DNA of 44,390 nucleotides from Pseudomonadales bacterium (GCA_051008535.1 JBPCXM010000619.1:1-44390), one strand, 5' to 3'. Shown: positions 1 to 39,395, counted from the first letter of the stretch. Notes: generated by a model not told the origin, from the letters alone. Translations and numbers: made by a program.

Positions 1-1272
1 CTTCGCTTGTTGTTGTGAGAACTCACCGGTCGCCAATGCCGCCTGCGCCGACGTGCCCGGCCGCAAACTAAACGCCGGTAGGAAGCAACCCGGGCATTGC
101 CCACAGTTTTGCCAATCGTCTTGAGTAATTCCTTTCACGGTGAGATGACCCGACGCGCCGGCGGCGACATGATTCATCTTTGCCTGTTCCACCTGTGTTT
201 CGCATTGCGCAGATTCGGGATCGCCGCATTGGCGACGAATAATCTCCCCGGCTTGCCAGCAGCAAGGAATATAAGCGTCGGCGGGTGGCGGGCAGTAAGC
301 CTTGCCAGCCACGTCGTAAGCGACCCCGCGCCAGGAACGATACTCTTCGGAGTTGCCATGCCCAGAGAAAACCTCGATTAAATTTTGCCGATCGCCACCA
401 GCGGAGTCGCCGTGGAGTTGCTTTTCCCAGTTGCTGCCCGGCGGTGTATAAAGACCCCAGGCGTTGCCATGCGGAATAACTATGTATTCGCTGCGCCACT
501 CATTAAGGCGGGCAAACAGATCAGCAGGCGTGCCCGCTGATTCGTGGCAATCTACGGGCAGCTTGGTGCTGTTAACTGCCGGGTCGCAGGCTTTCGTCCC
601 AAACGACTGCAATGTGTATTTCAAATACTGCCAATGCTCGGCCCTGTTCGCCGGATCATAAAAAGGCCGCAGTAGCCGGTCTTTGAGCACATCCCAATAC
701 GGCATACCGACATTAAATTGATTGGAACCATCACTGCTGCTAATTGGCCGGGCCGGCAGTTTGGCGTCGGCTAAATCGCGAAGAACAACGTTTTTGTGAC
801 CGTAGTGATTATCCGGCGAGGGTCCAATCTGGGTCCACTCCCAGCCCAGAAAAGACACCATATCGGGATTGTTAGCACTACCGGAGACGGCGTTGCATTG
901 CCGAATCAGGTCGCGGGTATTTTGCCAACGCGCGGGGCTGAGAAACTCGGCGTGGTCGTTGATGCTCCAGAAGTCCAATCGCGAACAATAGCGGGCAAAG
1001 TCGCACGCGTCGGCCGGTGGGTGAGCGCCATCGCCACCAAAAAAACTCAGGCTTTTTTCGAATGCATCCATGGAGTAAGTGGTGTGCACGTGCAAGTCGC
1101 CGAATAAGATTTGCGTGCCATTAGCCTGCGGCCCGGTTGCGGTTAACGCGCGCGCTACGGTACTCGGCTTGCCCACAGCTTCATATACATCTTGGCCGCA
1201 GCTGCAGAGTAGTAAGCCGAGCGCGGTATATGCAACAACAATAGCGACATTGTGGAGAGGTTTATGCTTCAT
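1..1272 (-). CDS. DUF3604 (PHP-like metallohydrolase) family protein, probable lipoprotein; C-terminus runs off the window start
   Basis: Not in the ORF track because it has no stop in the window. Manual translation from ATG 1272 (GTG 1275 is an alternative) is open to base 1: MKHKPLHNVAIVVAYTALGLLLCSC...ILFGDLHVHTTYSMDAF...LDFWSINDHAE...FLGWEWT...HYGHKNV...IPHGNAW...IEVFSGHGNSE. The GDLHxHT and DH.E motifs match those of 4059..5924. Confidence 0.85.
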   Translation of the reverse strand, partial: MKHKPLHNVAIVVAYTALGLLLCSCGQDVYEAVGKPSTVARALTATGPQANGTQILFGDLHVHTTYSMDAFEKSLSFFGGDGAHPPADACDFARYCSRLDFWSINDHAEFLSPARWQNTRDLIRQCNAVSGSANNPDMVSFLGWEWTQIGPSPDNHYGHKNVVLRDLADAKLPARPISSSDGSNQFNVGMPYWDVLKDRLLRPFYDPANRAEHWQYLKYTLQSFGTKACDPAVNSTKLPVDCHESAGTPADLFARLNEWRSEYIVIPHGNAWGLYTPPGSNWEKQLHGDSAGGDRQNLIEVFSGHGNSEEYRSWRGVAYDVAGKAYCPPPADAYIPCCWQAGEIIRRQCGDPESAQCETQVEQAKMNHVAAGASGHLTVKGITQDDWQNCGQCPGCFLPAFSLRPGTSAQAALATGEFSQQQAK

Positions 1273-1301
1273 CACGGCATTGCGCAAACTTATGTGGCAG
1301 T

Positions 1302-1670
1302 TTAGTCAGCTTGCACTTCCTTTATTGCGTTTTCGACTGGCCCAAGCATAGAAGCGGCGCGCGGGTAACCGGAATACTGGGCAATCATCAACAATAGCTC
1401 GCGCAATTCATCCGCCGTCAATTCTCCATTTTTTAGCGCAGCTTTAGCCTGTATACCGAAAGTCATGGATTCACCTTTTTCGGCGATGATACCGAGCAAC
1501 AACAGGCGACGATCACGTATCGACAGAACATCTCGTGACCACACCTCGGCAAACAGCTGCTCAAGCATGACATCGGTAAAAGTATAACCTTCTTCGGGAA
1601 CAACCACGTCGCCTGCATATACTTTGTTAATTACCTGCAAGCCTTTGGCCCGGCGTTCAGAATCGCTCAT
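1302..1670 (-). CDS. carboxymuconolactone decarboxylase (CMD) family protein
   Basis: F.EVWSR..LS.RDRRLL and ALKNG.LT.DELRELL....YSGYP motifs; 4-bp overlap with the upstream gene. Confidence 0.85.
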   Translation of the reverse strand: MSDSERRAKGLQVINKVYAGDVVVPEEGYTFTDVMLEQLFAEVWSRDVLSIRDRRLLLLGIIAEKGESMTFGIQAKAALKNGELTADELRELLLMIAQYSGYPRAASMLGPVENAIKEVQAD

Positions 1671-2170
1671 TTAGATTTCTCCTCACTTTTGATGTGTGGG
1701 GAAGCGTGACGACACCGCAGCATAAAAGACGCCCGCAGCCGAAACACCTCTTCCTCTTTTTGATTGTACATCTGGCAGCATGACCGCACGATGCCTGCGG
1801 CCGAGTTGCTTTTCGAGTGCCGCGTTTCTTCAACGGTAGCGATGTTGACCAGCGTATCGCCGGCATAGACCGGCTTTAGCATTCGCAACTGATCAAATCC
1901 CAGTGATGCTAATGGTTGCTGCACGGCACCACTTTCCCACTGTTGACTGATGGCACAAAATATCGAAAAGATATGCGCGGAACAGCAAGTGAGCCCACCA
2001 AAAATAGACTCTATTGCCACCTCCTCATCAATATGAAACGGCTGTGGGTCCCATTGCTTGGCGAAATCTATAATCTCTTGCTTGTCAACCGTGTAGCTGA
2101 TAGAGCGATGTTGTTGTCCAATAGTGTAATCTTCGAAATAAAACGGCTCGCCCCGCATTTTACTCATCAC
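1667..2170 (-). CDS. MaoC-like hot-dog dehydratase / (R)-hydratase
   Basis: YFEDY.IG and FA.QWDPQPFHIDEE.A..S.FGGL hydratase motif; LR...PVYAGDTL. Confidence 0.85.
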   Translation of the reverse strand: MMSKMRGEPFYFEDYTIGQQHRSISYTVDKQEIIDFAKQWDPQPFHIDEEVAIESIFGGLTCCSAHIFSIFCAISQQWESGAVQQPLASLGFDQLRMLKPVYAGDTLVNIATVEETRHSKSNSAAGIVRSCCQMYNQKEEEVFRLRASFMLRCRHASPHIKSEEKSK

Positions 2171-2179
2171 TGTGTAGTC

Positions 2180-2992
2180 CTAAATCAAGGGGGTGATAAT
2201 ATCTAGCAGGAAAAATACCAACATGCTCGCCGCAAGCGCTTCGACAATCACTTTGGACAAAGGCCAATTTTCGTCTGCAGCCTCGTCAATGCGATAAGCA
2301 AAGGGAAAACTCACCAGAAAATAGCAGGCATAGAACGCTGAGCCGTACTTCAGCATCCAACCCAAGTCTTTGTAGTAGAAGAAAGGCTTATTGGCATCGG
2401 TCGCTACCAGTCTCGTTTCAGCCCAGGCAAAAAAATACGCAAACACAACAGTGACTATAACCACAACCCAGGGACCAATGTTGAGGCGCGACGTAAATAT
2501 TCGGCGCATAAAAACAAAGGCCAAACTGTGATAAACGACAAAAAAAGCGGCGGCGTTAAAATACATGCCTAGCGGGATTTTTTGTTCGCCGCTGCCAACC
2601 AACACAGCATCCCAGTAGAGGCTTACTTGTGGAAAGTGGTACACCATTCCGAGTACATCGAAAAAATACTCGGTAAAAAAATAGGTCGCCGCAAAAGCGA
2701 AGACATAGTTCCAAACGTTAAACTTAAACCAATACGTTTGGAACCAGCGGCGCCCAAAAGCTGTTTCATTGTGAATCAGCAATGGCACAATATACAACGG
2801 CGCGAGCATAATTATATTTTGCCCAATGTGCCAAAGATTACCAGCGTCCATCCAGCCGAACGCCTGCTTGCCCACATTGAGAAAAAAGAAGAAAGGCAGA
2901 TAACACAAAAAGAATTTTTCGCCCCAGGCTTTGCTAGGGTTTTTGGAGAACCAGTATCCCTTTTCGGAAGTAGCAATCACAGCATTTTGCAT
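2180..2992 (-). CDS. cycloeucalenol cycloisomerase (cyclopropylsterol isomerase, CPI1)-like polytopic membrane protein
   Basis: Collinear blocks against recalled Arabidopsis CPI1: WFSKNPSKAWGEKFFLCY vs WLAPNPSKRWGELFFLFY; YWFKFNVW..FAFAATYFFTEYFFDVLGMVYHFP vs YWVKANLW..FSYVGNYFWTHYFFKVLGASYTFP; FYACYFLVSFPFAYRIDE..ENWPLSKVIVEALAASMLVFFLLD vs FYAIYFIVSFPMFFRMDE..DEWDLSRVAVDALGAAMLVTIILD. Similar length. Confidence 0.85.
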   Translation of the reverse strand: MQNAVIATSEKGYWFSKNPSKAWGEKFFLCYLPFFFFLNVGKQAFGWMDAGNLWHIGQNIIMLAPLYIVPLLIHNETAFGRRWFQTYWFKFNVWNYVFAFAATYFFTEYFFDVLGMVYHFPQVSLYWDAVLVGSGEQKIPLGMYFNAAAFFVVYHSLAFVFMRRIFTSRLNIGPWVVVIVTVVFAYFFAWAETRLVATDANKPFFYYKDLGWMLKYGSAFYACYFLVSFPFAYRIDEAADENWPLSKVIVEALAASMLVFFLLDIITPLI

Positions 2993-2996
2993 TGGT

Positions 2997-4016
2997 TCAA
3001 CCTTGTGGAAACAATCTGGGCAGCTGTTGTTTTTGTAAATGTCCCGCCTCTACCAACCAGCACAAGCTATCGGCAAAGGTTTTTTCCGGATCGCAAAATG
3101 ACAAGCCAAGCTCGGTAAATTTTTCGCTCGGCTTTACGTTTGGCCACTGAGTACTATAACGCATCGTTTCCGCGGAGATGGGCGAATCGACCGTGGTAAA
3201 TAAGCGTCTGAAATCGTAGAACCGGCCCATCGCCCGAAAAACCCAACCTTTTGCCGGTACGCGCTTGAGTGTATAACCCGACACCTTTTCCAGTAAATCA
3301 GCTAACTGCGACCAGGTTAGGTAGGGGCCGGGTAGCAAGTAACGCGCTCCGCTAGTGGATTCTTCCAATAGAGTTACAATAAAAGACGCCAGGTCACGCA
3401 CATCAACGTGTTGCATACCACCTTCGGTAATTCGAAAGCCATCGTTAAAACGATGAATGAGCGCTTTGAAGGCATCAGACAAGCCGGGGTCGTTGGGGCC
3501 GATCACACCTCCCGGGTAGACGATATCCACAGCGGCACCGTTGTTCTGCATCTCGCGCACCGCCATATCGGCCTCAACCTTGCTACGCCCGTAAGGCATT
3601 CTGGAAGGCGACAGCGGTGCCTGTTCGGTTACCTTGCTAGCGTCAGTATTAAAAATGGCGGTGATACTGGAGACATGAACAATACGTCGGATGCCAACAT
3701 CAGCTGCAGTACCAATCACATGCTTCACGCCATCGACATTGGTTTTAAATAACACGGCGGTGTCGTCACCCTTGATAGGCGTAGCCGCGGCGGCATGTAC
3801 TACGGCGTCGCAACCTACTATTGCACTGCGCACGCTGGCAGCGTCGGTAACATCGCCGCGTTTCAGCGACAGCATCGATGTACCGGCCTGGGAATAGACG
3901 CTGCGCGCCTTACCCTCGTCACGCACCAACAGCTGCACTGCATGGCCCAGCCCGAGCAACTGCCGGGTAACATGAGAGCCAACAAAACCCGTGCCTCCAG
4001 TTACCAAAACTCGCAC
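2997..4016 (-). CDS. NAD-dependent epimerase/dehydratase family extended SDR (3-beta-HSD/HpnA/DFR-like)
   Basis: TGGTGFVG Rossmann motif, HAAA, HVSS, catalytic YGRSK, VDVRD; GTG start. Confidence 0.85.
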   Translation of the reverse strand: MRVLVTGGTGFVGSHVTRQLLGLGHAVQLLVRDEGKARSVYSQAGTSMLSLKRGDVTDAASVRSAIVGCDAVVHAAAATPIKGDDTAVLFKTNVDGVKHVIGTAADVGIRRIVHVSSITAIFNTDASKVTEQAPLSPSRMPYGRSKVEADMAVREMQNNGAAVDIVYPGGVIGPNDPGLSDAFKALIHRFNDGFRITEGGMQHVDVRDLASFIVTLLEESTSGARYLLPGPYLTWSQLADLLEKVSGYTLKRVPAKGWVFRAMGRFYDFRRLFTTVDSPISAETMRYSTQWPNVKPSEKFTELGLSFCDPEKTFADSLCWLVEAGHLQKQQLPRLFPQG

Positions 4017-4058
4017 TATCTAAACCCGAATCCACTAACAGCTTGATAAAAATGTGTT

Positions 4059-5924
4059 TTACGGCGCATACCAAATTGCAGAACTGATCGCCCTTTCCTG
4101 CAGAGTCGCCGGCTTTGGTGCAGCGATGCCCAACTTCCTCGCATCGTAGGTTGTCCAACGTGGTGTGGGAATTTCGATAACGCGCGCATAGTAAAACGCT
4201 TCATTGGTTGGATCAAAATCCGGATCGCTCCACACGGTCGCAAGCCTGCCCGCACCAATCACATTGGCGTAACTTGCATTGCGCACGTGGACGATGTTAC
4301 CGACAGAAGGGACTTTGCCAGTGACCGGATCCGGGACGCGTTCTCCCGAGGCGGCGACATCAAAGACTTTCTCATGGCTAGATCCGCTGGCGTCAACCCA
4401 ACCTTTGATAATCTGCACGCGGTCCAAATTGGCCCCCTCCGGGTCTTTCTCTGCCCATACCGCAAACGTCGGTGCTGCTACATTTTTCTGCTTGGGTGGC
4501 AACACACCTCCCATCGGCACCCCAGCTGCGTAAGCTTGCCTTACAGCATTCGTTCGGTCGAACAGCGATGTTGTATAGCGCCAACCGCCGAAAAAGCGCA
4601 GCCTAATTCGCGACCCCGAAGTTGCGTAAGTTTCCTTGCGTCGCATCGCGTCAAACAGGGAGGCGCGCGTGTTCTCCTCGGCCCATACTGCGGCCAAGCC
4701 TGCGGCACTCCACATCCCACCGCGGTTTTGACTCTTTGGCAGCAAAGTGGCTGTGTTCATGCGTAACGCGGCGCTGCCGTCCATGATTGGTAGCTTACCG
4801 TGGTAGTTATCCTCCTCCACCGGAGAGCTGGCGTTGTGACCGTCGCTGCTACCAATGACACCGAATTTGTATGGATTAAACCCCTCGCTATGCGACAATT
4901 CTAGTCCAGTGCGCAGTGCGTCGCGCATATAGCCCCCCTTAGCTTTGGCGATACCGCCCTTTTGCCTGAGCAACAGTTCATAGATTTCGAAATCCGCGAA
5001 TTCGTCTTCAGTCGATAGTATTGGATGCGTTTCCGATGTTCCTTTGACCTGCATGATCTCACTGATGGGTTCATAACGCATGCGCAGCGCCGCATATTTT
5101 TCCGACAGCGGCTCACCTTGGTAGTTACGTTTTTCCCACATTCTACCGTTGCTAACATTGCTATTATGCGGAATCGCAAACGCTTGCATGTCTCGCCTAT
5201 TCTGCTTATCAAGCAAGCGCCACAAATCTTCCGGGTTGGCGGAGTCCAGAGAGCTGTATGGTAGTTTCGGTACGCGCAGGCCACGGTAAATTACATTGCG
5301 GTGTAAATTGTCGCCGTCCGGCATAGAACTCCATTCGTAGGCAATAAAAGTGGTAAAAACGCCGGGTTGGTAATGTTGCTGAGCCGCGTCTATGGTCTGC
5401 TGCCAGGCGCTACGCATGACCAAATCGGCATCGTCATCGAATTCAATATCCTTTAAATCAAAACCCAGCACGGTTTGCAGATAGGTTTTGGTAATTGCGA
5501 AGCGACTGCCGTTGATCAACACATCACGCAATGAACGACGCGACAACGGCAGATCAGGATTCATCGCACGAACGACTCCCAAGTATTCCGAGTGGTCGGT
5601 AACAGCGGCAAAGTCCAGTGGTCGCGATATGCGAATCGGGTAGCCGGCAGCGTGCTCAATGGTCCCGCCCTTGGCAAAAGTGTAAGCGTCATCGGGCAGG
5701 GCCCGCACCCCCATCGTAAAGGCGTCGGTGGAAAGGCTGGTGTGAATATGCAGGTCGCCGAAAAAAACGTTCTTATCTGGATTAGCTGCTACGGCGGGTT
5801 TTACAGGTGGCGGTTTCGCGGCGCTTGGCTTGTAGTTTGGATACAAACTTGGATCGTGCACTCTGCTGCAACCGACCAGAGCGATCAGAACTAACGACAT
5901 GAATAATTTTCGCGGATTTATCAT
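4059..5924 (-). CDS. DUF3604 (PHP-like metallohydrolase) lipoprotein
   Basis: Lipobox LVGC; FGDLHIHTSLSTDAF, VTDHSEY, AYEWS, NLHRNVI, IPHNSN, EIMQVKG and GSSDGH motifs; C-terminal FYYARVIEIPTPRW..QERAISSAIWY. Confidence 0.88.
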   Translation of the reverse strand: MINPRKLFMSLVLIALVGCSRVHDPSLYPNYKPSAAKPPPVKPAVAANPDKNVFFGDLHIHTSLSTDAFTMGVRALPDDAYTFAKGGTIEHAAGYPIRISRPLDFAAVTDHSEYLGVVRAMNPDLPLSRRSLRDVLINGSRFAITKTYLQTVLGFDLKDIEFDDDADLVMRSAWQQTIDAAQQHYQPGVFTTFIAYEWSSMPDGDNLHRNVIYRGLRVPKLPYSSLDSANPEDLWRLLDKQNRRDMQAFAIPHNSNVSNGRMWEKRNYQGEPLSEKYAALRMRYEPISEIMQVKGTSETHPILSTEDEFADFEIYELLLRQKGGIAKAKGGYMRDALRTGLELSHSEGFNPYKFGVIGSSDGHNASSPVEEDNYHGKLPIMDGSAALRMNTATLLPKSQNRGGMWSAAGLAAVWAEENTRASLFDAMRRKETYATSGSRIRLRFFGGWRYTTSLFDRTNAVRQAYAAGVPMGGVLPPKQKNVAAPTFAVWAEKDPEGANLDRVQIIKGWVDASGSSHEKVFDVAASGERVPDPVTGKVPSVGNIVHVRNASYANVIGAGRLATVWSDPDFDPTNEAFYYARVIEIPTPRWTTYDARKLGIAAPKPATLQERAISSAIWYAP

Positions 5925-6197
5925 GTACGACTACGTGTTACCAGAAACGGCTGTACTATTGCGCACCTAAAAGGATTATTTTTCCTGCGCGGCGCAATCA
6001 TACAAGGAAAAAGGCCACGAGTCTCGGCGGAGGAAAAACCCGTGCACTGCGCTGGCATCGATTTCGTCGTTACGATGTTTAGACGACAACCTTTATGCAC
6101 AACGTTGTCGCGTGGACTTGACAGTAAGGATGGAAAGCAACAGGCTTGCCAGAACTAAGCCGCCTGCAGTGACCCGGCTTATTCTAGGAGCACAAGC

Positions 6198-6524
6198 ATG
6201 ATCATCAGCAATATCGAAATCATTCCCGGCAGAAAGGTGAACAAACACCTTGGTATGGTGCAGGGCAATACGGTACGCGCAAAACATGCCGGCAAAGACA
6301 TTATGGCCGGTTTCAAAAATATCTTTGGCGGTGAGCTCAAAAGTTATACCGAGTTGCTGCACGAGGCGCGCGAAGAGGCCGTGTCACGTATGGTGGCCCA
6401 AGCCAAAGCCATAGGTGCAAATGCTGTGCTAAATGTTCGATTCTCTACATCATCCATCACCGCCGGTGCCGCTGAGCTGTTTGCTTATGGCACGGCAGTC
6501 ATTCTGGATGATGAAACGTCATGA
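6198..6524 (+). CDS. YbjQ/UPF0145 family (putative heavy-metal-binding) protein
   Basis: GKDIMAGFKNIFGGELKSYTELL.EAREEA..RM..QA...GANAV.NVRF..AYGTAV; RBS AGGAG. Confidence 0.9.
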   Translation: MIISNIEIIPGRKVNKHLGMVQGNTVRAKHAGKDIMAGFKNIFGGELKSYTELLHEAREEAVSRMVAQAKAIGANAVLNVRFSTSSITAGAAELFAYGTAVILDDETS

Positions 6525-6997
6525 TGTTCGAATTGATTATATTCATCACTCTGGTTTTTCTCGGTTTCGTATTTGGACGACGCGCCGAGCAAAAGCACTT
6601 TAAATCCATTTTGCAGCGCGAACACGATTACGCCTCTTTGTTAACCTTCAGCGAGCGCTTTCCTCCGCCTGATCTTGACGTCAAGCAGTCTGCATTGGTA
6701 ATTGGCAGCGTGGTGATTTCCATTGACTATTTCAAGCGTATTGCCGCCGGCCTACGCAGTTTTTTCGGCGGCCGAATCGGCGCCTACGAATCGCTGATCG
6801 AACGCGCACGACGCGAAGCGATTCTACGCATGAAAGAAGAGGCTAAGGCTATGGGCGCAAGCATGATCGTTAACGTCAAGCTGGAAACTGCATCCATCAC
6901 CAAAGGTGCTGAAGATCAGGTCGGTGCAGTCGAGGTGTATGCTTATGGCACCGCCTTGGTAACGCCACAACAGCCAGCTATATCTACGGCCGCCTGA
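6521..6997 (+). CDS. YbjQ family protein with N-terminal membrane anchor
   Basis: N-terminal TM helix; FFGG.I..YESLIERARREAILRMKEEA..AYGTA; ATGA overlap with the upstream gene. Confidence 0.85.
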   Translation: MMFELIIFITLVFLGFVFGRRAEQKHFKSILQREHDYASLLTFSERFPPPDLDVKQSALVIGSVVISIDYFKRIAAGLRSFFGGRIGAYESLIERARREAILRMKEEAKAMGASMIVNVKLETASITKGAEDQVGAVEVYAYGTALVTPQQPAISTAA

Positions 6998-7002
6998 AAA
7001 CA

Positions 7003-7842
7003 GTGAAATACGAAAACCGCCAGGTTCCCGAAGGAATCAATGTCAGCAACGAACACCCGCTGAAGGAGTTCCTCGTACTACTGGCCGGCTTGATAGTGAT
7101 TATTATCGCCGTGGTATTCGTGTTAGCCATACTGGCACAATACATGGCACCGCTTATACCCTTCAGCACTGAGCAAAAACTACTCAGCAAAATAGAAACC
7201 GCATGGCAAGAGAGTGAGCCCGCAAGCAAGCACGATAAAAAAGTCCAACAGTACTTACAAGAACTGGGCGCCAATCTTGCCGCCGAAATGGATTTACCGG
7301 AGGCCATGCAACTCAATATTCGATATAGCAAAGACAAAACGGTCAACGCCTATGCTACGCTGGGCGGCAACGTCATGATGTATCGCGGCATGCTGCGCAA
7401 TCTGCCACATGAGAATGCCGTTGCTATGGTGCTCGCTCACGAGATCGCCCATATTAAACTACGCCATCCCATCGTCGCTGCCGGACGCGGAATAACAGTC
7501 GCACTCGCGCTGGCAAGCGTTACTGGGTTGAGCGACAACGGCCTGATAGCTGGCTTGATCAATCAAATTGGTCTGACCTCAACACTTGGCTTTAGCCGCC
7601 GCCAGGAAAGCAACGCCGACAAAGAGGCTTTGCGCGCCTTACAAAAACACTACGGTCACGTCAACGGAGCGGAAGTATTGTTCCAAGTATTAGGCGAACA
7701 CTCAGCGATGATATCACCGGCTTTCTTGAGCACACATCCGGGGAGCAAACAGCGCATACAGCGGATTAAAGATTTCGCCCAAGAGCACGCGAGCGGAGGC
7801 GATGTCACGGCTTTGCCTAACTTCTTACAGCTTCGCAAATAG
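7003..7842 (+). CDS. M48 family zinc metallopeptidase
   Basis: N-terminal TM; NAYATLGG, AHEIAH (HExxH), FSRRQESNAD, FLSTHP. Confidence 0.88.
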   Translation: MKYENRQVPEGINVSNEHPLKEFLVLLAGLIVIIIAVVFVLAILAQYMAPLIPFSTEQKLLSKIETAWQESEPASKHDKKVQQYLQELGANLAAEMDLPEAMQLNIRYSKDKTVNAYATLGGNVMMYRGMLRNLPHENAVAMVLAHEIAHIKLRHPIVAAGRGITVALALASVTGLSDNGLIAGLINQIGLTSTLGFSRRQESNADKEALRALQKHYGHVNGAEVLFQVLGEHSAMISPAFLSTHPGSKQRIQRIKDFAQEHASGGDVTALPNFLQLRK

Positions 7843-7864
7843 AATCCCCTCATTCACTGCGGCA

Positions 7865-9904
7865 CTAAAAGACAAACTTAACCCCTAACGACGGAATTAG
7901 CGGCAGCCCCTCTTCCTCCTCCAAACGAAATTCCGCCGTACCGGCGATTGGCTCGTATGCCACCGCACCACCGTTGCGACGCGCATATACGTTGATGATG
8001 TCAAAATAATAGCTGCCTTCAACGCGGCTGAATCTGAATAGCCGCTCAGCGCGCAAGTCTAGTCGATGGTAGGCTCCCGCTCGCTCACTGTTGAGTTTGC
8101 CGTAGACCGGCAGGTAAAAGCCGGGGAAATCTGGATTTTCGCGGTTGCCAGTGATCGGCGTGTAAGGCATGCCGCTGCGGTAATTCCAACGCAGCCCTAC
8201 ATTCCATTTGCGCAATTGATAGTTGAGCACCAGGTTCGCAACGATCGGCGTGTCGTAGTCGGCGTTGGTGGTCAGACCGGTCAAGTCATTGGTGCGGCGG
8301 GTTTTGGCGTAACTTAGCGCGAACCAACCATACCAACGGTCACGCTGCGCTTTTTGCAACATCAACTCGACGCCGTACGCCTCTCCCGTCGCCGCATTGA
8401 CATAGTTGCGTTCGTCGTCCACATCAACGGCAAGGTTTTTCAGATCTTTGTAGTAAAGATCCAAATCAATCGACCAGCCGTCTCCAAACTCACCTTTAGT
8501 ACCAACAACATAATGGGTGGCTTCGGGCGAGCGCAGTTGCGGATTGCCAAATACAGGAATGATCTGGTCTATTTCCGGCAGTTGGTGATACTTTCCCCAC
8601 GAGCTTATCAGCCGCCAATTTTCGGTCAAGGTCAAACTAGCCTCGATGCGCGGTTCGGCGAAAGAGTCCTTCAAGTAATCGTCGCTTGACCATTGCATGC
8701 CCACTGTAATCAATAGCCTTGGCGTTACCTGCCACGCATCCTCGACGAATAGCGCTGTAGTCGCCACGTCCTGCCTATCGATTGCTTGTAGCAGTTCGCC
8801 AGGTTCCGTCTCGCAAGAAGGGTCGAAATCGCTGCAGCTTTGATAGCGCAGCTTCACGGCATAGTCGAACTCCTGCCGTTGATTTTCGCCACCCAGCGCT
8901 ACCCGGTGAGCGTTTGTCAGCTGTCGGGTGTAATGGCTCTTCACCGTCCAACCTGTGGTGTCGATCTCCAGGAATTCCGCGCCGTCGCTGAGTCGATCGC
9001 GTCGCGACTCCTGCAAGCGGCCGATGCCGGTCTTTAGTTCGTTGTTGTCATCGCGATAATCCCAACGCAGACCAACGCTATTAAATTTGGTATCGAGTGA
9101 TGCCCGCCCCGTACTACCGGGGTCGATCAGGGCGTCATCCGAGTTGCTACCAAGCGATAAAGCAGCGCGATCGCTGGCTCCCAGCGCCAGCAACGACACG
9201 CGGTTGTTTTCGTTGGGCGTCCAGGAGTACTTTGCCTGATAGTCGTCGGACCGCGGCCAACTGTTGATCTCAATATCCTCCTCATCCTTGAGATCTTCAT
9301 CGCCTTCGATCGCCTCCAGAATCAGATGCACCAAGCTCTCTCGCACCGACACATAAAACGCCTGGTTTTCCGTCACCCGACCTTCAAGCAACACGCCAGC
9401 GCGTAAAAAGCTGGCGTCAATCGTGGTGGTGAGATCTTGCGAAAGTGGTTCGCGCAGGCTGACATCGAACACGGCGCCGGTGGCCTGACCATAACGCGAA
9501 CCAAAGCCAGCGGCTTTGAGACCAAAGTCGCGAATAAGATGCTCGTTAAATACACTGTTACCAAAATCGTGAAACACATAGCTGGTAGGCAGGAAGTCGA
9601 TAAGAAAGGTGTTGTCATCAGGACCCGAGCCACGCACCGCCGGTTGGCCATCGCCGTCTTCCACTTCGACCACGCCGGGCAGGGAAAATATCGCTCGCAT
9701 CGGGTCACCAAGCGTGCCTGGAACGCGCAGCAGCTTTTCGGTGAGCAATGTCGGGGCAGTACGGTCCTGGTCTTTCTGTCCATCGACAATGACTTCCTCA
9801 ATCGCAGCTGAACTGTCGTCTTCCGCGTCGGCCGACGCTATCGCCATAGCATTAGAAATTACAATAAGTAGGCCTATATATAGCGGTGCGCTGATCGTTT
9901 TCAT
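7865..9904 (-). CDS. TonB-dependent outer-membrane receptor
   Basis: Signal peptide from ATG 9904; TonB-box-like IEEVIVDG; plug LPGV..PAVRGSGPDDN; beta-barrel pattern ending in GVKFVF. Confidence 0.88.
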   Translation of the reverse strand: MKTISAPLYIGLLIVISNAMAIASADAEDDSSAAIEEVIVDGQKDQDRTAPTLLTEKLLRVPGTLGDPMRAIFSLPGVVEVEDGDGQPAVRGSGPDDNTFLIDFLPTSYVFHDFGNSVFNEHLIRDFGLKAAGFGSRYGQATGAVFDVSLREPLSQDLTTTIDASFLRAGVLLEGRVTENQAFYVSVRESLVHLILEAIEGDEDLKDEEDIEINSWPRSDDYQAKYSWTPNENNRVSLLALGASDRAALSLGSNSDDALIDPGSTGRASLDTKFNSVGLRWDYRDDNNELKTGIGRLQESRRDRLSDGAEFLEIDTTGWTVKSHYTRQLTNAHRVALGGENQRQEFDYAVKLRYQSCSDFDPSCETEPGELLQAIDRQDVATTALFVEDAWQVTPRLLITVGMQWSSDDYLKDSFAEPRIEASLTLTENWRLISSWGKYHQLPEIDQIIPVFGNPQLRSPEATHYVVGTKGEFGDGWSIDLDLYYKDLKNLAVDVDDERNYVNAATGEAYGVELMLQKAQRDRWYGWFALSYAKTRRTNDLTGLTTNADYDTPIVANLVLNYQLRKWNVGLRWNYRSGMPYTPITGNRENPDFPGFYLPVYGKLNSERAGAYHRLDLRAERLFRFSRVEGSYYFDIINVYARRNGGAVAYEPIAGTAEFRLEEEEGLPLIPSLGVKFVF

Positions 9905-9979
9905 AGCATCCATCCAATGACAGTCAAACACAGCTCACATGCTATAAGCTAGGCGGTGATCACTCAGTAAGAGTTTGGT

Positions 9980-9996
9980 TACCGTTTGTAACGGTA
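9980..9996. promoter_or_regulatory. palindromic putative regulator site between the divergent TBDR and DUF885 genes
   Basis: TACCGTT-tgt-AACGGTA, a perfect 7-bp inverted repeat. Confidence 0.35.
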
Positions 9997-10134
9997 TGTA
10001 GCATCGGTTGAGGTCGACGCTGGCTTGTTCGTTCTACTTTACATTAACCAACCCTCGCCAGAAACAAGAATCGTGGTATCTTCTTGCCCACCACTTGATA
10101 TCAAACTGATTGTAAAATACACAATGGAGTCGCT

Positions 10135-11976
10135 ATGTTAAAACGATCATTCACCTTTCTGCTGCTAATCGTCGCAGTTGCCGCATGCACGTCAACTGAG
10201 CGGCTATCAACCCCGACCGACGAGTCGGCGACTGAAGCAGAGTCGGCAAAAGCCAATACGATGTTCGATCGTTTTTTCGAAGAGTCTGTTGCGCGTAGCC
10301 CAATGACCCAAGCCTATTTGGGCAGAAAAACAAACATGGACCAATGGGACAACCTGACCGATGAATATAGCAAGGAGACGTTGGAAGTACACAAGCGGCA
10401 GCTCGCCGAACTGCAAACACTGCAGCAAGACAAGCTCGACGATGCCAGCAAACTCAGTTACGCCTTGATGCAAAAGAGCCTGCAAGATGAGATCGAGGAC
10501 TACCGTTGGCGCTTGTATGATTACCCAGTCAATCAAATGCATGGGGTGCATGCCGCCGTACCCACGCTGCTAATCAATCAACACCAGATTAGCGACTTGA
10601 GCGACGCTGAGGCCTATCTGGCACGCTTGAACAACGTGCCTGAGTTTTTCAACCAATTGATTGCGAGCATCGACCAGCGTACAGCAGGTGGCATAGTCCC
10701 CCCCAAATTTGTGTTTCCTCACGTGATTCGTGACAGCCGTAACATCATCAAAGGCGCGCCCTTTGATAGCGGCAAGGACAACACCTTGTTCGCCGATTTC
10801 AAAGGCAAATTGGCGGCGCTGAAGGAGCAGGACGATGCGCTAAGGGACGAGCAAATTGCGCAATTGCTTGGCACTGCCGAAGATGCTCTGCGCAACTCGG
10901 TAAAACCTGCCTATGAAAAACTGATCGCTCATATGACCGAACTGGAGAAGACGGCAACTACCGAAGACGGTGTATGGAAATGGCCAGAAGGTGGAGAGTT
11001 TTTCAAAGTTGCGCTGCAACGCACAACAACGACCGATTTGACAGCTGAGGAAATTCACGAAACCGGCCTCAGCGAAGTTAAGCGCATCCATGCCGAAATG
11101 CGCAAGATCAAGGAACAAGTAGATTTCGATGGTGACCTGCAAGCCTTTATGCAGTTTATGCGAGAAGATAAACAGTTTATCTATACCGCAGACGACGAAG
11201 GCCGAGCGCGCTATCTGCGCGAGGCAACGGACCTTATCGACACAATGAAGTCGCGTCTCGATGAGCTCTTTATCACAAAGCCGAAAGCCGATTTGCGGGT
11301 CAAGGCGGTAGAACCTTTTCGCGAAAAATCGGCCGGCAAGGCATTTTACCAGCAGCCATCGGAAGACGGCTCACGGCCCGGTTTGTATTACGCCAACTTA
11401 TACGACATGGCCTCGATGCCGAGCTACCAGATGGAAGCCTTGGCCTATCACGAGGGCATTCCAGGCCATCATATGCAGATTGCGATGGCACAAGAGTTAG
11501 AGGGCGTGCCCAAATTTAGAAAGTACGGTCGCTACACCGCATATGTCGAAGGTTGGGGCTTGTATTCCGAAATGGTGCCAAAGGAAATCGGCCTGTACCA
11601 AGACCCCTACTCCGACTTCGGCAGGCTGGCGATGGAATTGTGGCGTGCCTGCAGACTGGTAGTCGATACTGGCATTCACGCGAAAAAGTGGACCCGTGAA
11701 CAAGGTATCGATTACTACTTTAACAACACGCCGAACGCCAAATGGGATGCTATCAAAATGGTTGAACGCCACATCGTTATGCCTTCGCAGGCAACAGCCT
11801 ATAAGATTGGCATGCTGAAAATCGTTGAACTGCGCGAAGCCGCGCGCACTAAATTGGGCGATCAATTTGATATTCGCGAATTCCACGATGTGGTGTTGAA
11901 ATACGGTCCATTGCCGCTGAATGTTTTGCAGCAAAAAGTTGAGGAGTGGACGGCAAACGCCGGGACTGCCTCATGA
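10135..11976 (+). CDS. DUF885 family lipoprotein (putative zinc peptidase)
   Basis: Lipobox VAAC; AYHEGIPGHHMQ, AYVEGWGLYSE, RACRLVVDTGIH, QATAYKIG, FDIREFHD. Confidence 0.9.
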   Translation: MLKRSFTFLLLIVAVAACTSTERLSTPTDESATEAESAKANTMFDRFFEESVARSPMTQAYLGRKTNMDQWDNLTDEYSKETLEVHKRQLAELQTLQQDKLDDASKLSYALMQKSLQDEIEDYRWRLYDYPVNQMHGVHAAVPTLLINQHQISDLSDAEAYLARLNNVPEFFNQLIASIDQRTAGGIVPPKFVFPHVIRDSRNIIKGAPFDSGKDNTLFADFKGKLAALKEQDDALRDEQIAQLLGTAEDALRNSVKPAYEKLIAHMTELEKTATTEDGVWKWPEGGEFFKVALQRTTTTDLTAEEIHETGLSEVKRIHAEMRKIKEQVDFDGDLQAFMQFMREDKQFIYTADDEGRARYLREATDLIDTMKSRLDELFITKPKADLRVKAVEPFREKSAGKAFYQQPSEDGSRPGLYYANLYDMASMPSYQMEALAYHEGIPGHHMQIAMAQELEGVPKFRKYGRYTAYVEGWGLYSEMVPKEIGLYQDPYSDFGRLAMELWRACRLVVDTGIHAKKWTREQGIDYYFNNTPNAKWDAIKMVERHIVMPSQATAYKIGMLKIVELREAARTKLGDQFDIREFHDVVLKYGPLPLNVLQQKVEEWTANAGTAS

Positions 11977-13037
11977 GCGACATCGTTTCCGACCCTGCCA
12001 ATATCACGCCAGACTGGCTAACTGAAGTTCTTCGTAGTAGCGGGAATTTGCCAAACGGTAGTGTGACCAATGCTCAATGGCAGAATATCGGCACCGGGAA
12101 AATGGGAGACAACGCGCGTTTCACTCTGCGTTACGATGGCAACTACAATACGCCAACCAGCGTTATCGCTAAGTTGCCAGCAGCCGACGAGACGGCACGC
12201 TCGATGGCCGGCGCGATGGGCGCCTATCGGAAAGAAGTGATGTTTTATCGTGAGCTGGCGCCGCTCACCGGCATGCAAACACCCGAGATCTACTGTGCCG
12301 AAGTCAATGCCGACGGCACCGAATTTATTATTCTTATGGAGGATCTCGCACCCGCTGAACCCGGCAACCAACTCGTGGGAGAGTCACAACAAAGAGCGGA
12401 GCTGGCAGTGATCGAGGCCGCCAAACTGCACGCTCCGTTTTATGCCAAACCCGAGTTGCTGGCGGGCGACTACGTTACTAAAAACAATAAGGATGGCGCA
12501 GAGCTGGGTCAAAGCCTGATGCGACAGTACTGGCCAGGCTTTGTTGATCGTTTTGGCCACGGTCTCGCGCCCGGATGCATCGCACTGGGGGATACGTTTG
12601 CGGCCAATTATGCACAGTGGGCGCAGCGTTATGACGGTGCCAAAACACTGATACACGGCGACTACCGCTCGGAGAATATTCTGTTCGGCGGACGCGGCAC
12701 GGCAACTACGGTAGACTGGCAGACCGTGCAGGAATCATGCGCGTTGGCCGACGTGGCCTATTTCCTTGGCGGCAGCATAGATACAGATTTACGCCGCAGC
12801 ACCGAACAGGATTTGGTGGAAAAATACCGTGCTGCACTCCAAGCGTTGGGGGTAGAGATACCCGCCAAAGATTGCTGGCAGCAATATCGTGAGTTCTCGC
12901 TACACGGCGTAATGATTACCGTGCTAGGTGCCATGTTTACGGCACCGGAAGAACGCAGCGACCGCATGTTTCTCACGATGGCGCAACGGCACTTGCAGCA
13001 GTGTGTTGATATGCATGCCGATGAATTTATCACGTAG
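11973..13037 (+). CDS. APH/ecdysteroid-kinase-like phosphotransferase
   Basis: Real start is probably ATG 11973 (ATGA overlap with DUF885); IAKL, EVMFY, LMEDL, LIHGDYRSENILF and VDWQ kinase motifs. Confidence 0.85.
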   Translation: MSDIVSDPANITPDWLTEVLRSSGNLPNGSVTNAQWQNIGTGKMGDNARFTLRYDGNYNTPTSVIAKLPAADETARSMAGAMGAYRKEVMFYRELAPLTGMQTPEIYCAEVNADGTEFIILMEDLAPAEPGNQLVGESQQRAELAVIEAAKLHAPFYAKPELLAGDYVTKNNKDGAELGQSLMRQYWPGFVDRFGHGLAPGCIALGDTFAANYAQWAQRYDGAKTLIHGDYRSENILFGGRGTATTVDWQTVQESCALADVAYFLGGSIDTDLRRSTEQDLVEKYRAALQALGVEIPAKDCWQQYREFSLHGVMITVLGAMFTAPEERSDRMFLTMAQRHLQQCVDMHADEFIT

Positions 13038-16858: not shown

Positions 16859-17986
16859 ATGCTGTCAAAATTTGACGACTACCCAATTCATCAAACGGCG
16901 AAACCCCTCTTTCACACCGCCTCAAGTGATCGTTTTACCTATGACCGCTATTGGTACAACGGCCATGCAGGGGATGGTGCGTTCTACTTTGGTATTGCGC
17001 TGTGTCGTTATCCCAACTTGGGAATTCTCGATTGCGGCTTTAGCCTAGTAATCGACGGGCATCAGTATGCATTTCATGGATCACGTCGCGCGCCAGCAGA
17101 ACCGACTGAAACCGTAGTGGGGCCGTTAGCTCTACAAATACTTGAGCCAATGGGAAGACATAGGCTGCTGATTGGGCCCAACGAAACCGGCATCGAATGC
17201 GACCTTGTGTTCACGCCACGCACGGCCGTGATTGAAGAGGGTCATCAAACGCTGAGCAACGAACGACATGTTGTGATGGATGCAACCCGACTTGACCAAT
17301 TCGGTTTCTGGCACGGCAGCGTTCGTTACGATGGCAAGGAAATTGTCGTTGATGGCCGGAACACCTATGGACTTAAAGATCGCTCCTGGGGCATCCGTCC
17401 TGTTGGCGCAGCATACGATGGCGGCGCGCCTTTGGATAACTACCAAGCCGTGCACTTCGTTTGGGCGCCAATACATTGGGACGACCACTGTACCCTTGCC
17501 AGCTTTTTCGAAGACGATAAGGGGCATCAGTGGCATAACGACCAGGCTATTTTACCCACGTACCCAAGCATGGAGGATATACCTGGAGTCAACGATGCAG
17601 CCGGCGAAATATGGAGGGGCACCGTGAAGCATAACCTGACGATGGAACCCGGCACCCGCCGCGCAACAGATGCCAGCATTGTCATGACCGACAAATCAGG
17701 AGAAACGCTTGAAATAAGCTTGCAGCCTTCATTGCTCTATCGCATGAAAGGCATCGGTTATCAACACCCTGATTGGGGGCATGGACAGTGGAAAGGCGAA
17801 CTCGCTATCGGCGGAGAAAGTTGGAAGTGCACTGATGTTGACCCGTTAGCTTTGGAGAATATTCATATTCAACAAGTGGTGACAGCGAAATGCGGTGACA
17901 AAACCGGGTACGGTGTTCTGGAACAAATGCATATTGGCCCTTACCAAACCTATGGATTCAAAGACTGGTTCGACGGTGCGTCCTAA
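16859..17986 (+). CDS. conserved hypothetical all-beta protein (tocopherol-cyclase/AttH-like fold suspected)
   Basis: The ORF-track start at 16598 overlaps the SDR; the likely start is ATG 16859 with a GGAG RBS. LSKFDDYPIHQT..DRYWYN..YPNLG..DRSWGIRP..GY.HP.WGHG motifs. Confidence 0.7.
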   Translation: MLSKFDDYPIHQTAKPLFHTASSDRFTYDRYWYNGHAGDGAFYFGIALCRYPNLGILDCGFSLVIDGHQYAFHGSRRAPAEPTETVVGPLALQILEPMGRHRLLIGPNETGIECDLVFTPRTAVIEEGHQTLSNERHVVMDATRLDQFGFWHGSVRYDGKEIVVDGRNTYGLKDRSWGIRPVGAAYDGGAPLDNYQAVHFVWAPIHWDDHCTLASFFEDDKGHQWHNDQAILPTYPSMEDIPGVNDAAGEIWRGTVKHNLTMEPGTRRATDASIVMTDKSGETLEISLQPSLLYRMKGIGYQHPDWGHGQWKGELAIGGESWKCTDVDPLALENIHIQQVVTAKCGDKTGYGVLEQMHIGPYQTYGFKDWFDGAS

Positions 17987-18008
17987 TTTATTACCTCTAA
18001 GCAAGCCT

Positions 18009-21944: not shown

Positions 21945-22028
21945 ACGTTAGGTCACGATCAACTGCGCGCGTGGCTGAAGTAGAATCGCCCGCCATCAAT
22001 TCGGGCATATTAGAAACGGGAAACAACT

Positions 22029-36152: not shown

Positions 36153-36157
36153 AAGGA

Positions 36158-39387: not shown

Positions 39388-39395
39388 GTCACAGG

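Follow-up and report, generated by a model that had tools for sequence, protein, structure and literature searches.

Plant cycloeucalenol cycloisomerase is represented by the Arabidopsis enzyme CPI1, and eukaryotic CPI accompanies cycloartenol synthase. To our knowledge, no bacterial CPI homologue has been assayed, and none was found in the literature searched. A Mycobacterium is reported to convert cycloartenol and 24-methylenecycloartanol into C19 steroids, which serves as a precedent.

In bacteria, CPI1 homologues have been reported from sterol-making myxobacteria, in Plesiocystis pacifica (PMC2817430) and in an eight-gene set (PMC8237579). They are discussed there within de novo sterol synthesis. 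Gene pairs of Cyp51, ferredoxin and 8,14-Bsr (NTF2) have been described in methanotrophs, Mycobacteriales and other proteobacteria (PMC13277303). This published CYP51 and NTF2 protein system acts on lanosterol, and the same paper proposes that non-producers modify exogenously acquired sterols; the words CPI, cyclopropyl and cycloisomerase have no occurrence in its main text. Finally, the SdmA/SdmB system of C-4 demethylation and HpnA are covered by the models NF052578, NF052579 and TIGR03466.

A CPI family protein in a run of six genes

The window is a stretch of 44,390 nucleotides from a Pseudomonadales bacterium (GCA_051008535.1). ORF calling confirmed the six same-strand ORFs that the first-pass annotation had placed at positions 1-5924. 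The gaps, in order from the DUF3604a gene downward, were 42, 4, 9 and −4 bp, as annotated. The last gap, between the CMD gene and the DUF3604-related gene, had been given as about 29 bp; it is 14 bp if the latter starts at the TTG at 1287 and 29 bp if it starts at the in-frame ATG at 1272. Given this spacing, the six ORFs may be co-transcribed. Promoter and terminator scans of the locus gave counts at chance level.

Table 1. Features of the six-ORF locus in the window.
Feature	Coordinates	Strand	Basis and remarks
DUF3604 lipoprotein (DUF3604a), 621 aa	4059..5924	-	Pfam 723.8 bits; genus backbone gene upstream of the block
Extended SDR (HpnA/SdmB/3beta-HSD-like), 339 aa	2997..4016	-	Pfam Epimerase 106.9 bits, 3Beta_HSD 81.6 bits
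CPI-family (cycloeucalenol cycloisomerase-like) integral membrane protein, 270 aa	2180..2992	-	Homology, fold, invariant residues
MaoC-like hot-dog hydratase/dehydratase, 167 aa	1667..2170	-	Pfam MaoC_dehydratas 45.7 bits
CMD/AhpD-like (carboxymuconolactone decarboxylase family), 122 aa	1302..1670	-	Pfam CMD 29.9 bits; 4-bp overlap with MaoC
DUF3604-related lipoprotein-like gene, 429 aa present, cut by contig end	1..1287	-	Pfam DUF3604, partial
Accessory insertion: SDR, CPI, MaoC, CMD, DUF3604-related gene	1..4058		Missing at the syntenic position in two same-genus genomes

By homology, predicted fold and conserved residues, the 270-aa product of 2180-2992 truly belongs to the CPI1 (cycloeucalenol cycloisomerase) family, which bears out its original annotation. 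The ORF gave no match to Pfam and NCBIfam profiles. It has 495 homologues, many of them named cycloeucalenol cycloisomerase at source, and the Hondaea fermentalgiana protein of that name aligned with residues 14-269 at 43% identity (E 6.4e-52). The Atlas model of the exact protein (pLDDT 0.87) matched a Streptophyta-dominated cluster named cycloeucalenol cycloisomerase with a TM of 0.86 over 252 residues; this cluster is 95% eukaryotic, and the models on both sides of the comparison are predicted. All 12 residues that were invariant over 16 bacterial and eukaryotic sequences, the present protein included, were retained (E25, P70, K90, Y109, F110, Y118, P140, R163, G217, Y221, F225 and P230). 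Like plant CPI1, the protein appears to be a polytopic membrane protein, with at least four strongly hydrophobic segments, and its length is similar to the 297 and 326 aa of the representatives of the plant cluster.

The protein also differs from plant CPI1, and its activity is putative. Identity to the eukaryotic members of the alignment was 27-39%. In both trees, a mainly gammaproteobacterial CPI clade containing this protein stood apart from the eukaryotes and from two Myxococcota clades (support 99), and identity to the Myxococcota loci was 45-51%. The association with cycloartenol synthase that defines eukaryotic CPI did not hold in this genome, in which no cyclase was found and no other sterol-pathway enzyme was detected.

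An accessory block beside a backbone gene

The first-pass annotation had treated the six genes as one system, but as a set they are not conserved. Judged from synteny, DUF3604a is part of the backbone of the genus, and positions 1-4058 are an accessory insertion beside it, whose far end lies beyond the contig. DUF3604a was syntenic in both same-genus genomes (78% DNA identity in G013 and 72% in G012). It is followed there by unrelated genes, and nothing of window positions 1-4058 was found in either genome. The DNA matches of both genomes to window positions 1-10000 end at 4060-4063, and the gene after DUF3604a in G012 matches the extreme end of another contig of the present assembly (C532). 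In addition, the 2-kb bin at 2001-4000 has a G+C content of 0.492, against 0.51-0.56 for the remaining bins along the contig. No CPI was found in the eight other genomes of the family; the gene is dispensable in this organism and may be a passenger.

The SDR is a conserved partner of CPI. An SDR homologue lay within 300 bp of CPI at 21 of 80 genome loci and 8 of 80 metagenome loci, and that of the nearest relative (L002) was 66% identical to the SDR here. The TGxxGxxG motif (TGGTGFVGS, residues 6-14) and the YxxxK motif (YGRSK) were kept. The protein aligned end to end with the HpnA model (160.3 bits, cut-off 367.65) and the SdmB model (121.5 bits, cut-off 600), as did the SDRs of L002 and L068. 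Since these scores are far below the cut-offs, the SDR is not an equivalog of either. The locus further differs from the SdmA/SdmB system in that no SdmA-grade Rieske partner was found (at best 71 and 51 bits, where the cut-off is 600).

Homologues of MaoC were found after CPI in L002 (56% identity), after a CYP51-SDR pair in a genome of the same family, G007 (55%), and in the G101 cluster (51%); no MaoC paralogue above 60 bits was found in this genome. A CMD homologue occurred within 300 bp of CPI at 10 of 80 genome loci, mostly of Solimonas, Nevskia and Hydrocarboniphaga, and at 4 of 80 metagenome loci. Another, of 57% identity, was located about 1.5 kb from a CYP51-SDR pair in G006. The gene set common to the block and L002 is SDR-CPI-MaoC only. 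From these neighbourhoods, we conclude that SDR-CPI-MaoC-CMD is the meaningful core, each gene of which recurs, in varying combinations, in the CYP51 and NTF2-family clusters of relatives.

The flanking DUF3604-type genes are of two kinds. DUF3604a matches PF12228 over its full length (profile positions 1-591 of 591). The gene at the contig end had been annotated as a second DUF3604. It is related and lipoprotein-like, but it is not a clean DUF3604: the Pfam match covers residues 58-116 only (37.7 bits). Because only profile positions 4-68 are matched, we regard it as a partial related form or a paralogue family; its full-length paralogues have 681-765 aa. Both proteins look as if they start with lipoprotein-like signal peptides, the lipobox being judged by eye (LVGC in DUF3604a).

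CYP51 linkage in relatives and the search for sterol genes in the host

CPI was present in 25 of the 301 genomes of an order-level sample. Among the other 24 CPI-bearing genomes, 23 carried CYP51, the sterol 14-demethylase (at least 40% identity); it lay within 10 kb of CPI in 19, and in four the two genes were far apart or on separate contigs. By comparison, CYP51 was found in 13 of the 276 genomes without CPI. CYP51 was within 3 kb of CPI and on the same strand at 40 of 80 genome loci (61 with at least 3 kb upstream), and within 3 kb at 40 of 80 metagenome loci (44 with at least 3 kb upstream). The CYP51 protein of L002 scored 403 bits to PDB 6mi0 (entry name Cytochrome P450 51), which is the Methylococcus capsulatus CYP51 (PMC7947880). 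Many CYP51 open frames of the relatives have 555-600 aa, a length that would fit a putative ferredoxin fusion.

A small ORF between or before these cluster genes was assigned to the NTF2 family solely by Atlas (0.97). It occurred within 3 kb of CPI at 23 of 80 genome loci and 24 of 80 metagenome loci. The cluster order in relatives is NTF2-family protein, CYP51, SDR and CPI, to which MaoC, CMD and a TetR regulator are often added; in some of them the flanks include acyl-CoA ligases, a CoA-transferase III and a dienoyl-CoA-reductase-like flavoprotein. Cultured bacteria with the cluster include Litorivivens lipolytica CECT 8654, Solimonas flava DSM 18980 and Steroidobacter denitrificans. The relatives thus resemble the Cyp51/8,14-Bsr pairs in having CYP51 and an NTF2-family ORF, matched by family, beside CPI. 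In contrast, the window contains neither a CYP51 nor an NTF2 gene.

In the order sample, the 24 other carriers of CPI yielded no full-length oxidosqualene/squalene cyclase. Nor was one found in four of five named CPI-bearing gammaproteobacterial genomes; only one of five CPI-carrying Myxococcota MAGs showed a cyclase. The view that bacterial homologues belong to sterol-making myxobacteria agrees with the published cases (PMC2817430, PMC8237579), but it is too narrow, as a database survey found the CPI family to be common in cyclase-less Gammaproteobacteria.

The host genome (838 contigs, 96.55% complete) was searched for the same functions. Oxidosqualene cyclase and squalene epoxidase, reported as absent from the window, were indeed not found among the window ORFs scanned, and the genome search returned no sterol or hopanoid cyclase (best PF13243 match 21.4 bits, under the cut-off). 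Squalene epoxidase gave one partial match of 28 bits, with a model that also matches E. coli. The best tblastn match for CYP51 in this 838-contig assembly was 30% over 159 aa, with none at E 1e-40, so this genome is one of only two exceptions among the 25 CPI-bearing genomes. The NTF2 ORF of L002 had no tblastn match in this fragmented assembly. Searches of the genome for C14-reductase, EBP and sterol methyltransferase were negative, two of the three lacking a positive control.

Of the steroid-catabolism equivalogs searched for in the genome, none reached its cut-off. The best HsaC-model score was 282 bits (cut-off 450), equal to that of the BphC model. The HsaC cut-off was passed in none of 46 genomes, and sub-threshold matches were found in 21 of 25 CPI carriers and 14 of 21 non-carriers. 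The genome has four KshA_C matches, the best of which adjoins an ABC exporter and a luciferase-like oxidoreductase, with no steroid context. A KshA_C Rieske gene (42706-43737) and a CoA-transferase III fragment (43761-44390) are located in the window. These catabolic-type genes, recorded by the first-pass annotation, do exist, but at a distance of about 37 kb from the six-ORF run, and they do not attain any steroid-catabolism equivalog score.

Interpretation of the block

Given that no sterol-making cyclase was found and that relatives of the block adjoin CYP51, the block probably processes algal or plant sterols. An exogenous cyclopropyl-sterol substrate, already suggested by the first-pass annotation, is the most economical reading because in other genomes members of the CPI family show tight linkage to CYP51. 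We therefore lean, with modest confidence, toward the block having branched off, without CYP51, from a bacterial module for the processing of cycloartenol-type sterols of exogenous origin. The functional unit would be the four-gene accessory block SDR-CPI-MaoC-CMD (1302-4016), just downstream of a pre-existing DUF3604 gene. Its parent would be a cluster for processing the sterol nucleus, found widely among Gammaproteobacteria without a triterpenoid cyclase. The membrane CPI would open the 9β,19-cyclopropane of cycloartenol-type sterols from algae or plants to give a delta-8 sterol. The SDR would oxidise or reduce the sterol at C-3, perhaps in a reaction coupled to removal of a C-4 carboxyl, and MaoC and CMD would be accessory enzymes. 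The products would go on to further modification or breakdown, and the block may have a role in growth on sterols.

The plant-derived name may mislead if the CPI of the gammaproteobacterial clade uses another substrate, for example if it isomerises a double bond or ring in lanosterol-type sterols or in other exogenous triterpenoids. The separate clade in both trees, the 27-39% identity to eukaryotic members and the carriers without cycloartenol synthase are consistent with this, and lanosterol is the substrate of the published CYP51 and NTF2 system. However, we consider it unlikely: all 12 invariant residues are kept, the fold matches the plant cluster, and CPI is an add-on to CYP51, whose occurrence without CPI in 13 genomes agrees with a step that only cyclopropyl substrates require. 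Furthermore, obtusifoliol, the product of CPI, is preferred by the CYP51 of M. tuberculosis (PMC7947880). It is also improbable that the block is a passenger, without function or in decay, left over from a CYP51 cluster whose CYP51 and NTF2 genes were lost on transfer. Its five ORFs are intact and tightly spaced with one 4-bp overlap, the invariant residues and SDR motifs are preserved, and CPI and CYP51 are unlinked in four of 24 CPI-bearing genomes as well. The failure to find CYP51 and NTF2 in the genome would fit a passenger, although CYP51 may be unassembled in a draft of this completeness and contig number; the eight other family genomes without CPI and the insertion of slightly lower G+C would also fit a passenger.

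The single strand and short gaps, the exported look of both DUF3604-type proteins, the CoA-related genes and flavoprotein beside the cluster in some relatives, and a DUF3604 gene about 4.5 kb from the G101 cluster could suggest a single catabolic system made up of all six genes. In such a system, DUF3604 would deconjugate sterol esters or glycosides, the SDR would oxidise C-3, and CPI would open the ring toward the 9,10-seco pathway. We regard this as very unlikely. DUF3604a stands alone, as backbone, in both same-genus genomes, and a DUF3604-type gene was found within 3 kb of CPI at 0 of 160 related loci (80 genome and 80 metagenome). DUF3604-like genes occupy 34 places in this genome (23 of the DUF3604a type and 11 of the type at 1-1287) with no recurrent partner gene, and steroid-catabolism equivalogs were not found. 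Nothing supported DUF3604 as a deconjugating enzyme: no activity is described in the searched papers that mention it, and no relative was found in the PDB. A part in making sterols de novo through cycloartenol, a route in which CPI1 acts in plants and is reported from sterol-making myxobacteria (PMC2817430, PMC8237579), is scarcely credible here. Neither the cyclase nor CYP51, C14-reductase, EBP or sterol methyltransferase was found, the epoxidase match is partial, and the other CPI-bearing genomes of the sample also yielded no full-length cyclase.

Beyond the preferred reading of the block as an offshoot that processes exogenous cyclopropyl sterols, we tentatively raise a broader possibility. 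CPI, CYP51, the NTF2 reductase and the HpnA/SdmB-like SDR in cyclase-less Gammaproteobacteria (Cellvibrionales-type, Steroidobacteraceae and Nevskiales) might constitute a previously undescribed route. Algal or plant cycloartenol, 24-methylenecycloartanol and cycloeucalenol would be taken up, and opening of the cyclopropane and removal of the 14α-methyl group would leave a nucleus that can be degraded or used. The window would then hold a minimal SDR-CPI-MaoC-CMD version able to act alone. If true, this route would also indicate where the long-puzzling CYP51 of bacteria that make no sterols obtains a natural substrate.

Gene arrangement at the end of the contig

The window spans the entire contig C619, which belongs to a 6.2-Mb MAG of 838 contigs (completeness 96.55%, contamination 6.78%); four DNA runs of one study contain 21-47% of the sampled words. 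Six minus-strand ORFs sit at the left end of the contig, with the gaps of 42, 4, 9 and -4 bp that the first-pass annotation had described; the last gap is 29 bp, as also described there, when the ATG at 1272 is the start, and 14 bp when a TTG is. Promoter and terminator scans of window 1-6600 gave 4 and 8 sites, compared with 5.3 and 9.3 expected from shuffles, which is chance level, and no RNA run was listed; the proposed co-transcription of the six ORFs is therefore suggested by their spacing. The SDR carries the motifs TGGTGFVGS and YGRSK and aligned end to end with the NCBIfam models HpnA (160 bits) and SdmB (121 bits), both well under cut-off. Both DUF3604-type proteins have a lipoprotein-like signal peptide at the N-terminus.

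Genes of the window, with strand where recorded
Feature	Position	Strand	Details
DUF3604-related, truncated at contig end	1-1287	-	429 aa; 37.7 bits, confined to some 60 residues at the N-terminus
CMD-family protein	1302-1670	-	122 aa; 29.9 bits
MaoC-like hot-dog protein	1667-2170	-	167 aa; 45.7 bits
CPI family	2180-2992	-	270 aa; no Pfam/NCBIfam match; assigned by homology and fold
Extended SDR	2997-4016	-	339 aa; Epimerase 106.9, 3Beta_HSD 81.6 bits
DUF3604a, full-length DUF3604	4059-5924	-	621 aa; Pfam 723.8 bits
YbjQ-YbjQ-M48 peptidase trio	6198-7842		divergent from the six ORFs; genus backbone
DUF885	10135-11976
Ecdysteroid-kinase-like (EcKL/APH)	11946-13037		6 kb from the SDR-CPI-MaoC-CMD block
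1349-aa multidomain protein, then ThuA-like gene	17895-22874		3-keto-disaccharide hydrolase, DUF7133, cytochrome c, DUF3471 domains
MsrA	29457-30095
Cytochrome P460	30371-30937		tandem; 4-bp overlap with next
Cytochrome P460	30934-31563
MsrB	31609-32061
Cyanophycin gene set	34458-41392
Mur-ligase-type protein (second of the set)	34458-36152
Cyanophycin synthetase	36158-39055
Peptidase_S51, cyanophycinase-like	39396-40220
Amidohydrolase	40220-41392
KshA_C Rieske protein	42706-43737		KshA_C domain 117 bits

Two further genomes of the genus were compared with the window. In both, window 4060-10000 was collinear at 72-78% DNA identity (DUF3604a, two YbjQ genes, the M48 peptidase and a TonB-dependent receptor). 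The DNA match ended at the DUF3604a stop codon, beyond which unrelated genes followed, indicating that window 1-4058 is, by this comparison, an accessory insertion adjoining the backbone gene DUF3604a, with its far end lost in an assembly gap. The gene after DUF3604a in one of the two genomes (G012) matched the extreme end of another contig of the source genome. Contig C97 was considered as a link across this gap and rejected, having no DUF3604-type C-terminus. The G+C content was at a low of 0.492 at window 2001-4000, and searches of the family's eight other genomes returned no CPI.

DUF3604-type genes are strongly expanded in the source genome, at 34 places on 29 contigs. The full-length type accounts for 23 of these and the related type for 11, and tandem copies occur (three on C266, two each on C644 and C664). 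No recurrent partner was found among the neighbours of these 34 genes; the largest neighbour cluster comprised five ORFs on four contigs, one of which matched a luciferase-like c18 query. The literature found that mentions DUF3604 describes no function for it, and no PDB relative of the family was found.

The CPI-family protein

Plant CPI requires a substrate in which the 4alpha-methyl group is present and the 4beta-methyl group is absent. The identification of the window protein as a CPI1 homologue held up. Among 1247 candidates, 495 were homologues at E <=0.001, many of them carrying the JGI/NCBI name cycloeucalenol cycloisomerase; a Steroidobacter denitrificans protein so named is 56% identical to the window CPI. 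HMMER, run exhaustively against 1.84 billion representatives, returned 430 matches at E <=0.001. A cycloeucalenol cycloisomerase-named protein of the stramenopile Hondaea fermentalgiana was 43% identical (E 6.4e-52), and further eukaryotic matches came from fungi, one holozoan and an MMETSP transcriptome of eukaryotic plankton. The Atlas model of the exact window protein, a predicted structure, aligned with a mostly Streptophyta CPI cluster at TM 0.86. When 16 members from bacteria and eukaryotes were aligned, 12 residues proved invariant; the window CPI has all 12, and it contains at least four strongly hydrophobic segments.

The phylogenetic position relative to eukaryotic and myxobacterial CPI was determined with FastTree on 96 rows and a quick IQ-TREE run (LG+G4) on 36 of those rows, both without bootstraps. 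In both trees, the window protein paired with that of its nearest relative (locus L002; support 99), and the pair nested in a distinct, mainly gammaproteobacterial clade (support 99), separate from two Myxococcota clades and from the long-branched eukaryotic rows.

CYP51, NTF2 and cyclase genes in CPI carriers

The neighbours of CPI were compared across the best 80 of 178 confirmed genome loci and the best 80 of 134 confirmed metagenome loci, whose origins partly overlap. No relative in the metagenome scan was above 66% identity. The commonest neighbour elsewhere was a P450 that matched PDB 6mi0 (entry named 'Cytochrome P450 51') at 403 bits; this entry is the Methylococcus capsulatus CYP51 (PMC7947880). 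Beside CYP51 lay a 160-aa ORF assigned to the NTF2 family by Atlas (0.97). The first-pass annotation had treated the six ORFs as one system; they do not form a conserved unit, as evidenced by the absence of both DUF3604 types within 3 kb of CPI in these 160 loci and by the same-genus synteny ending at DUF3604a.

Genes near CPI in the best 80 of 178 genome loci and the best 80 of 134 metagenome loci
Neighbour	Genome loci	Metagenome loci
SDR within 300 bp	21/80	8/80
CMD within 300 bp	10/80	4/80
MaoC within 3 kb	1/80	0/80
Either DUF3604 type within 3 kb	0/80	0/80
CYP51 within 3 kb	40/80, same strand (61 loci with >=3 kb upstream flank)	40/80 (44 loci with >=3 kb upstream flank)
NTF2 ORF within 3 kb	23/80	24/80

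Related clusters place the window genes beside CYP51. The nearest relative (77% CPI identity) has NTF2, CYP51, SDR, CPI and MaoC. Within the family, G007 has TetR, then CYP51, SDR and MaoC without CPI, and G006 has CoA-transferase III and an EcKL kinase, then NTF2, CYP51 and SDR; an aldehyde dehydrogenase gene and a homologue of CMD (57%) are nearby. In G101, the gene set is much as in the window and the order is different: MaoC, CYP51, SDR, NTF2, CPI, two YbjQ, M48, acyl-CoA ligase and a DUF3604 gene. Its CYP51 lies in an open frame of 555 aa, consistent in length with a possible ferredoxin fusion. The YbjQ-YbjQ-M48 trio of G101 (L092:4606-6256; YbjQ1 83% identical) lies directly downstream of CPI on the same strand, and the trio was in none of the 160 other CPI loci (best 80 of 178 genome and best 80 of 134 metagenome loci). 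The 57% homologue of the window EcKL gene in G006 (L091:4875-5981) directly adjoins the NTF2-CYP51-SDR cluster in divergent orientation, and the EcKL gene may be a candidate small-molecule (sterol?) kinase linked to the cluster. A CoA-transferase fragment at the end of the window opposite the six ORFs was ruled out as shared synteny with G006, being only 47% identical to the G006 copy. A conserved Myxococcota string (L021:4946-14067 and about 15-20 related loci) runs TetR, CYP51, (NTF2), CPI, beta-lactamase-fold protein, FAD amine-oxidase-like protein, unknown ORF, BphC-like extradiol dioxygenase and alpha/beta hydrolase.

We then considered a sample of 301 genomes from this large gammaproteobacterial order, in which kinship among genomes and MAG incompleteness apply to all counts. 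CPI was carried by 25 genomes (about 1 in 12) in 19 of 134 genera. CYP51 (>=40% identity) was present in 23 of the 24 carriers other than the source genome, within 10 kb of CPI in 19 and far apart or on separate contigs in four; it was present in 13 of the 276 genomes without CPI. Full-length triterpenoid cyclase matches occurred in four sampled genomes (G305, G144, G303 and G210) and in no CPI carrier of the sample, G091 having only short matches of <=34 bits. The pattern of CPI and CYP51 without cyclase spans 14 family codes among these related genomes and incomplete MAGs. Among five named carriers, the cyclase was absent from a Halioglobus MAG, Litorivivens lipolytica, Solimonas flava and Hydrocarboniphaga daqingensis and present in Nevskia soli; it was seen in one of five CPI-bearing Myxococcota MAGs. 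One locus without CPI (G303:C1:573989-578655) looks like a candidate true sterol-synthesis cluster: a 1226-aa open frame there has a cyclase-type match of 183 bits, and a gene resembling CYP51 (34% identity) is 2.4 kb away.

Across the whole source genome, no cyclase was found (best match 21.4 bits), and the one squalene epoxidase match, partial and of 28 bits, was unconvincing, coming from a model that also matches E. coli. Searches there for an ERG4/24-type reductase, for EBP and for the C-domain of sterol methyltransferase found nothing, two of the three being without a positive control. Neither CYP51 nor the NTF2 partner was found in the 838-contig assembly, which makes the source genome one of two CYP51-less genomes among the 25 carriers. 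Given the fragmented assembly and the constancy of the CPI-CYP51 association elsewhere, the missing CYP51 may be either a true loss or an unassembled gene.

Possible role of the block

In the literature found, CPI1 has been taken to mark sterol synthesis by the cycloartenol route, which plants, algae and a small number of myxobacteria use (PMC2817430 and PMC8237579, as far as their available text goes). Lee, Giner and Welander describe an arrangement of Cyp51 and an NTF2-fold 8,14-sterol reductase gene in methanotrophs, Mycobacteriales and other proteobacteria, and the available text suggests modification of exogenously acquired sterols (PMC13277303). The CYP51 and NTF2 ORF beside CPI in the relatives of the window match this arrangement, the NTF2 likeness being at family level. 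CPI is not mentioned in the main text of that paper. The bacterial Cyp51/NTF2 sterol-modifying cluster appears to exist in a wider version that includes CPI, and we lean, with modest confidence, towards explaining the four-gene accessory block (SDR-CPI-MaoC-CMD) as a variant of that version lacking CYP51. The analysis directly established the protein families, gene order and spacing, the insertion and the CYP51/NTF2 linkage in relatives, and its searches for cyclases failed to find one in the genomes concerned.

In such a cluster, CPI would open the 9beta,19-cyclopropane of exogenous cycloartenol-type sterols and the SDR would act at C-3. In full clusters, CYP51 would next take off the 14alpha-methyl group and the NTF2 protein would handle the resulting diene. 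MaoC and CMD would be accessory enzymes. More speculatively, the CMD protein, of a decarboxylase family, might aid with a 3-keto-4-carboxy intermediate. Ring opening before 14-demethylation fits the finding that M. tuberculosis CYP51 prefers obtusifoliol, which is the product of CPI (PMC7947880).

The cluster may serve sterol catabolism or remodelling. Several neighbours speak for catabolism: in Steroidobacteraceae loci CPI is flanked by acyl-CoA ligases and SDRs, in G101 it has ligases and a dienoyl-CoA-reductase-like flavoprotein on its flanks, G006 has the CoA-transferase III, and a related group of Myxococcota loci has BphC-like dioxygenase and hydrolase genes 3-5 kb downstream; a cited report, seen as a reference-list entry, has Mycobacterium turning cycloartenol into C19 steroids. 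However, no steroid-catabolism equivalog was reached in the source genome or in 45 other genomes tested, and the usable marker, HsaC, fails to separate CPI carriers from non-carriers: none of the 46 genomes passed its cut-off (25 carriers and 21 non-carriers, the latter non-random and many picked from the CYP51 list), and sub-threshold matches did not discriminate. The KshA-like Rieske gene, earlier counted as catabolic, reached no steroid-catabolism equivalog; its sole NCBIfam match, to SdmA (sterol C-4 methyl oxidase), scored 71 bits where the cut-off is 600 and was confined to the Rieske domain. Contigs C597, C209 and C250 were rejected as a steroid-catabolic context, holding a generic meta-cleavage set, a KshA_C protein without steroid neighbours and an acyl-CoA ligase at 409 against 750 for the steroid-24-oyl-CoA synthetase model. 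Of the earlier proposal of a six-gene catabolic or remodelling system for cyclopropyl sterols, the CPI1 homologue and the lack of a detectable cyclase stand, and the six-gene unit does not.

On bacterial CPI outside myxobacteria and on cyclopropyl-sterol degradation, the literature found, in its available text, gives only myxobacterial CPI (PMC2817430, PMC8237579) and the Cyp51/Bsr paper. No description of CPI homologues in cyclase-less Gammaproteobacteria or of their CYP51 linkage was found in main texts outside subscription journals, and the supplements of PMC13277303 and PMC8237579 might already show some. The CPI-containing version of the Cyp51/NTF2 cluster is, supplements excepted, so far undescribed in the literature found. 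If the enzymes act as named, these bacteria work on the sterol precursors of other organisms, an idea that is directly testable because several cultured carriers exist, such as Litorivivens lipolytica CECT 8654, Solimonas flava DSM 18980 and Steroidobacter denitrificans. The claim is weaker for this window, since its block is without CYP51 and the NTF2 partner. If true, the idea would bear on why bacteria that do not make sterols retain a sterol 14-demethylase, on the natural turnover of 4-methyl and cyclopropyl sterols, and on the reliability of metagenomic sterol-pathway genes as signs of sterol production.
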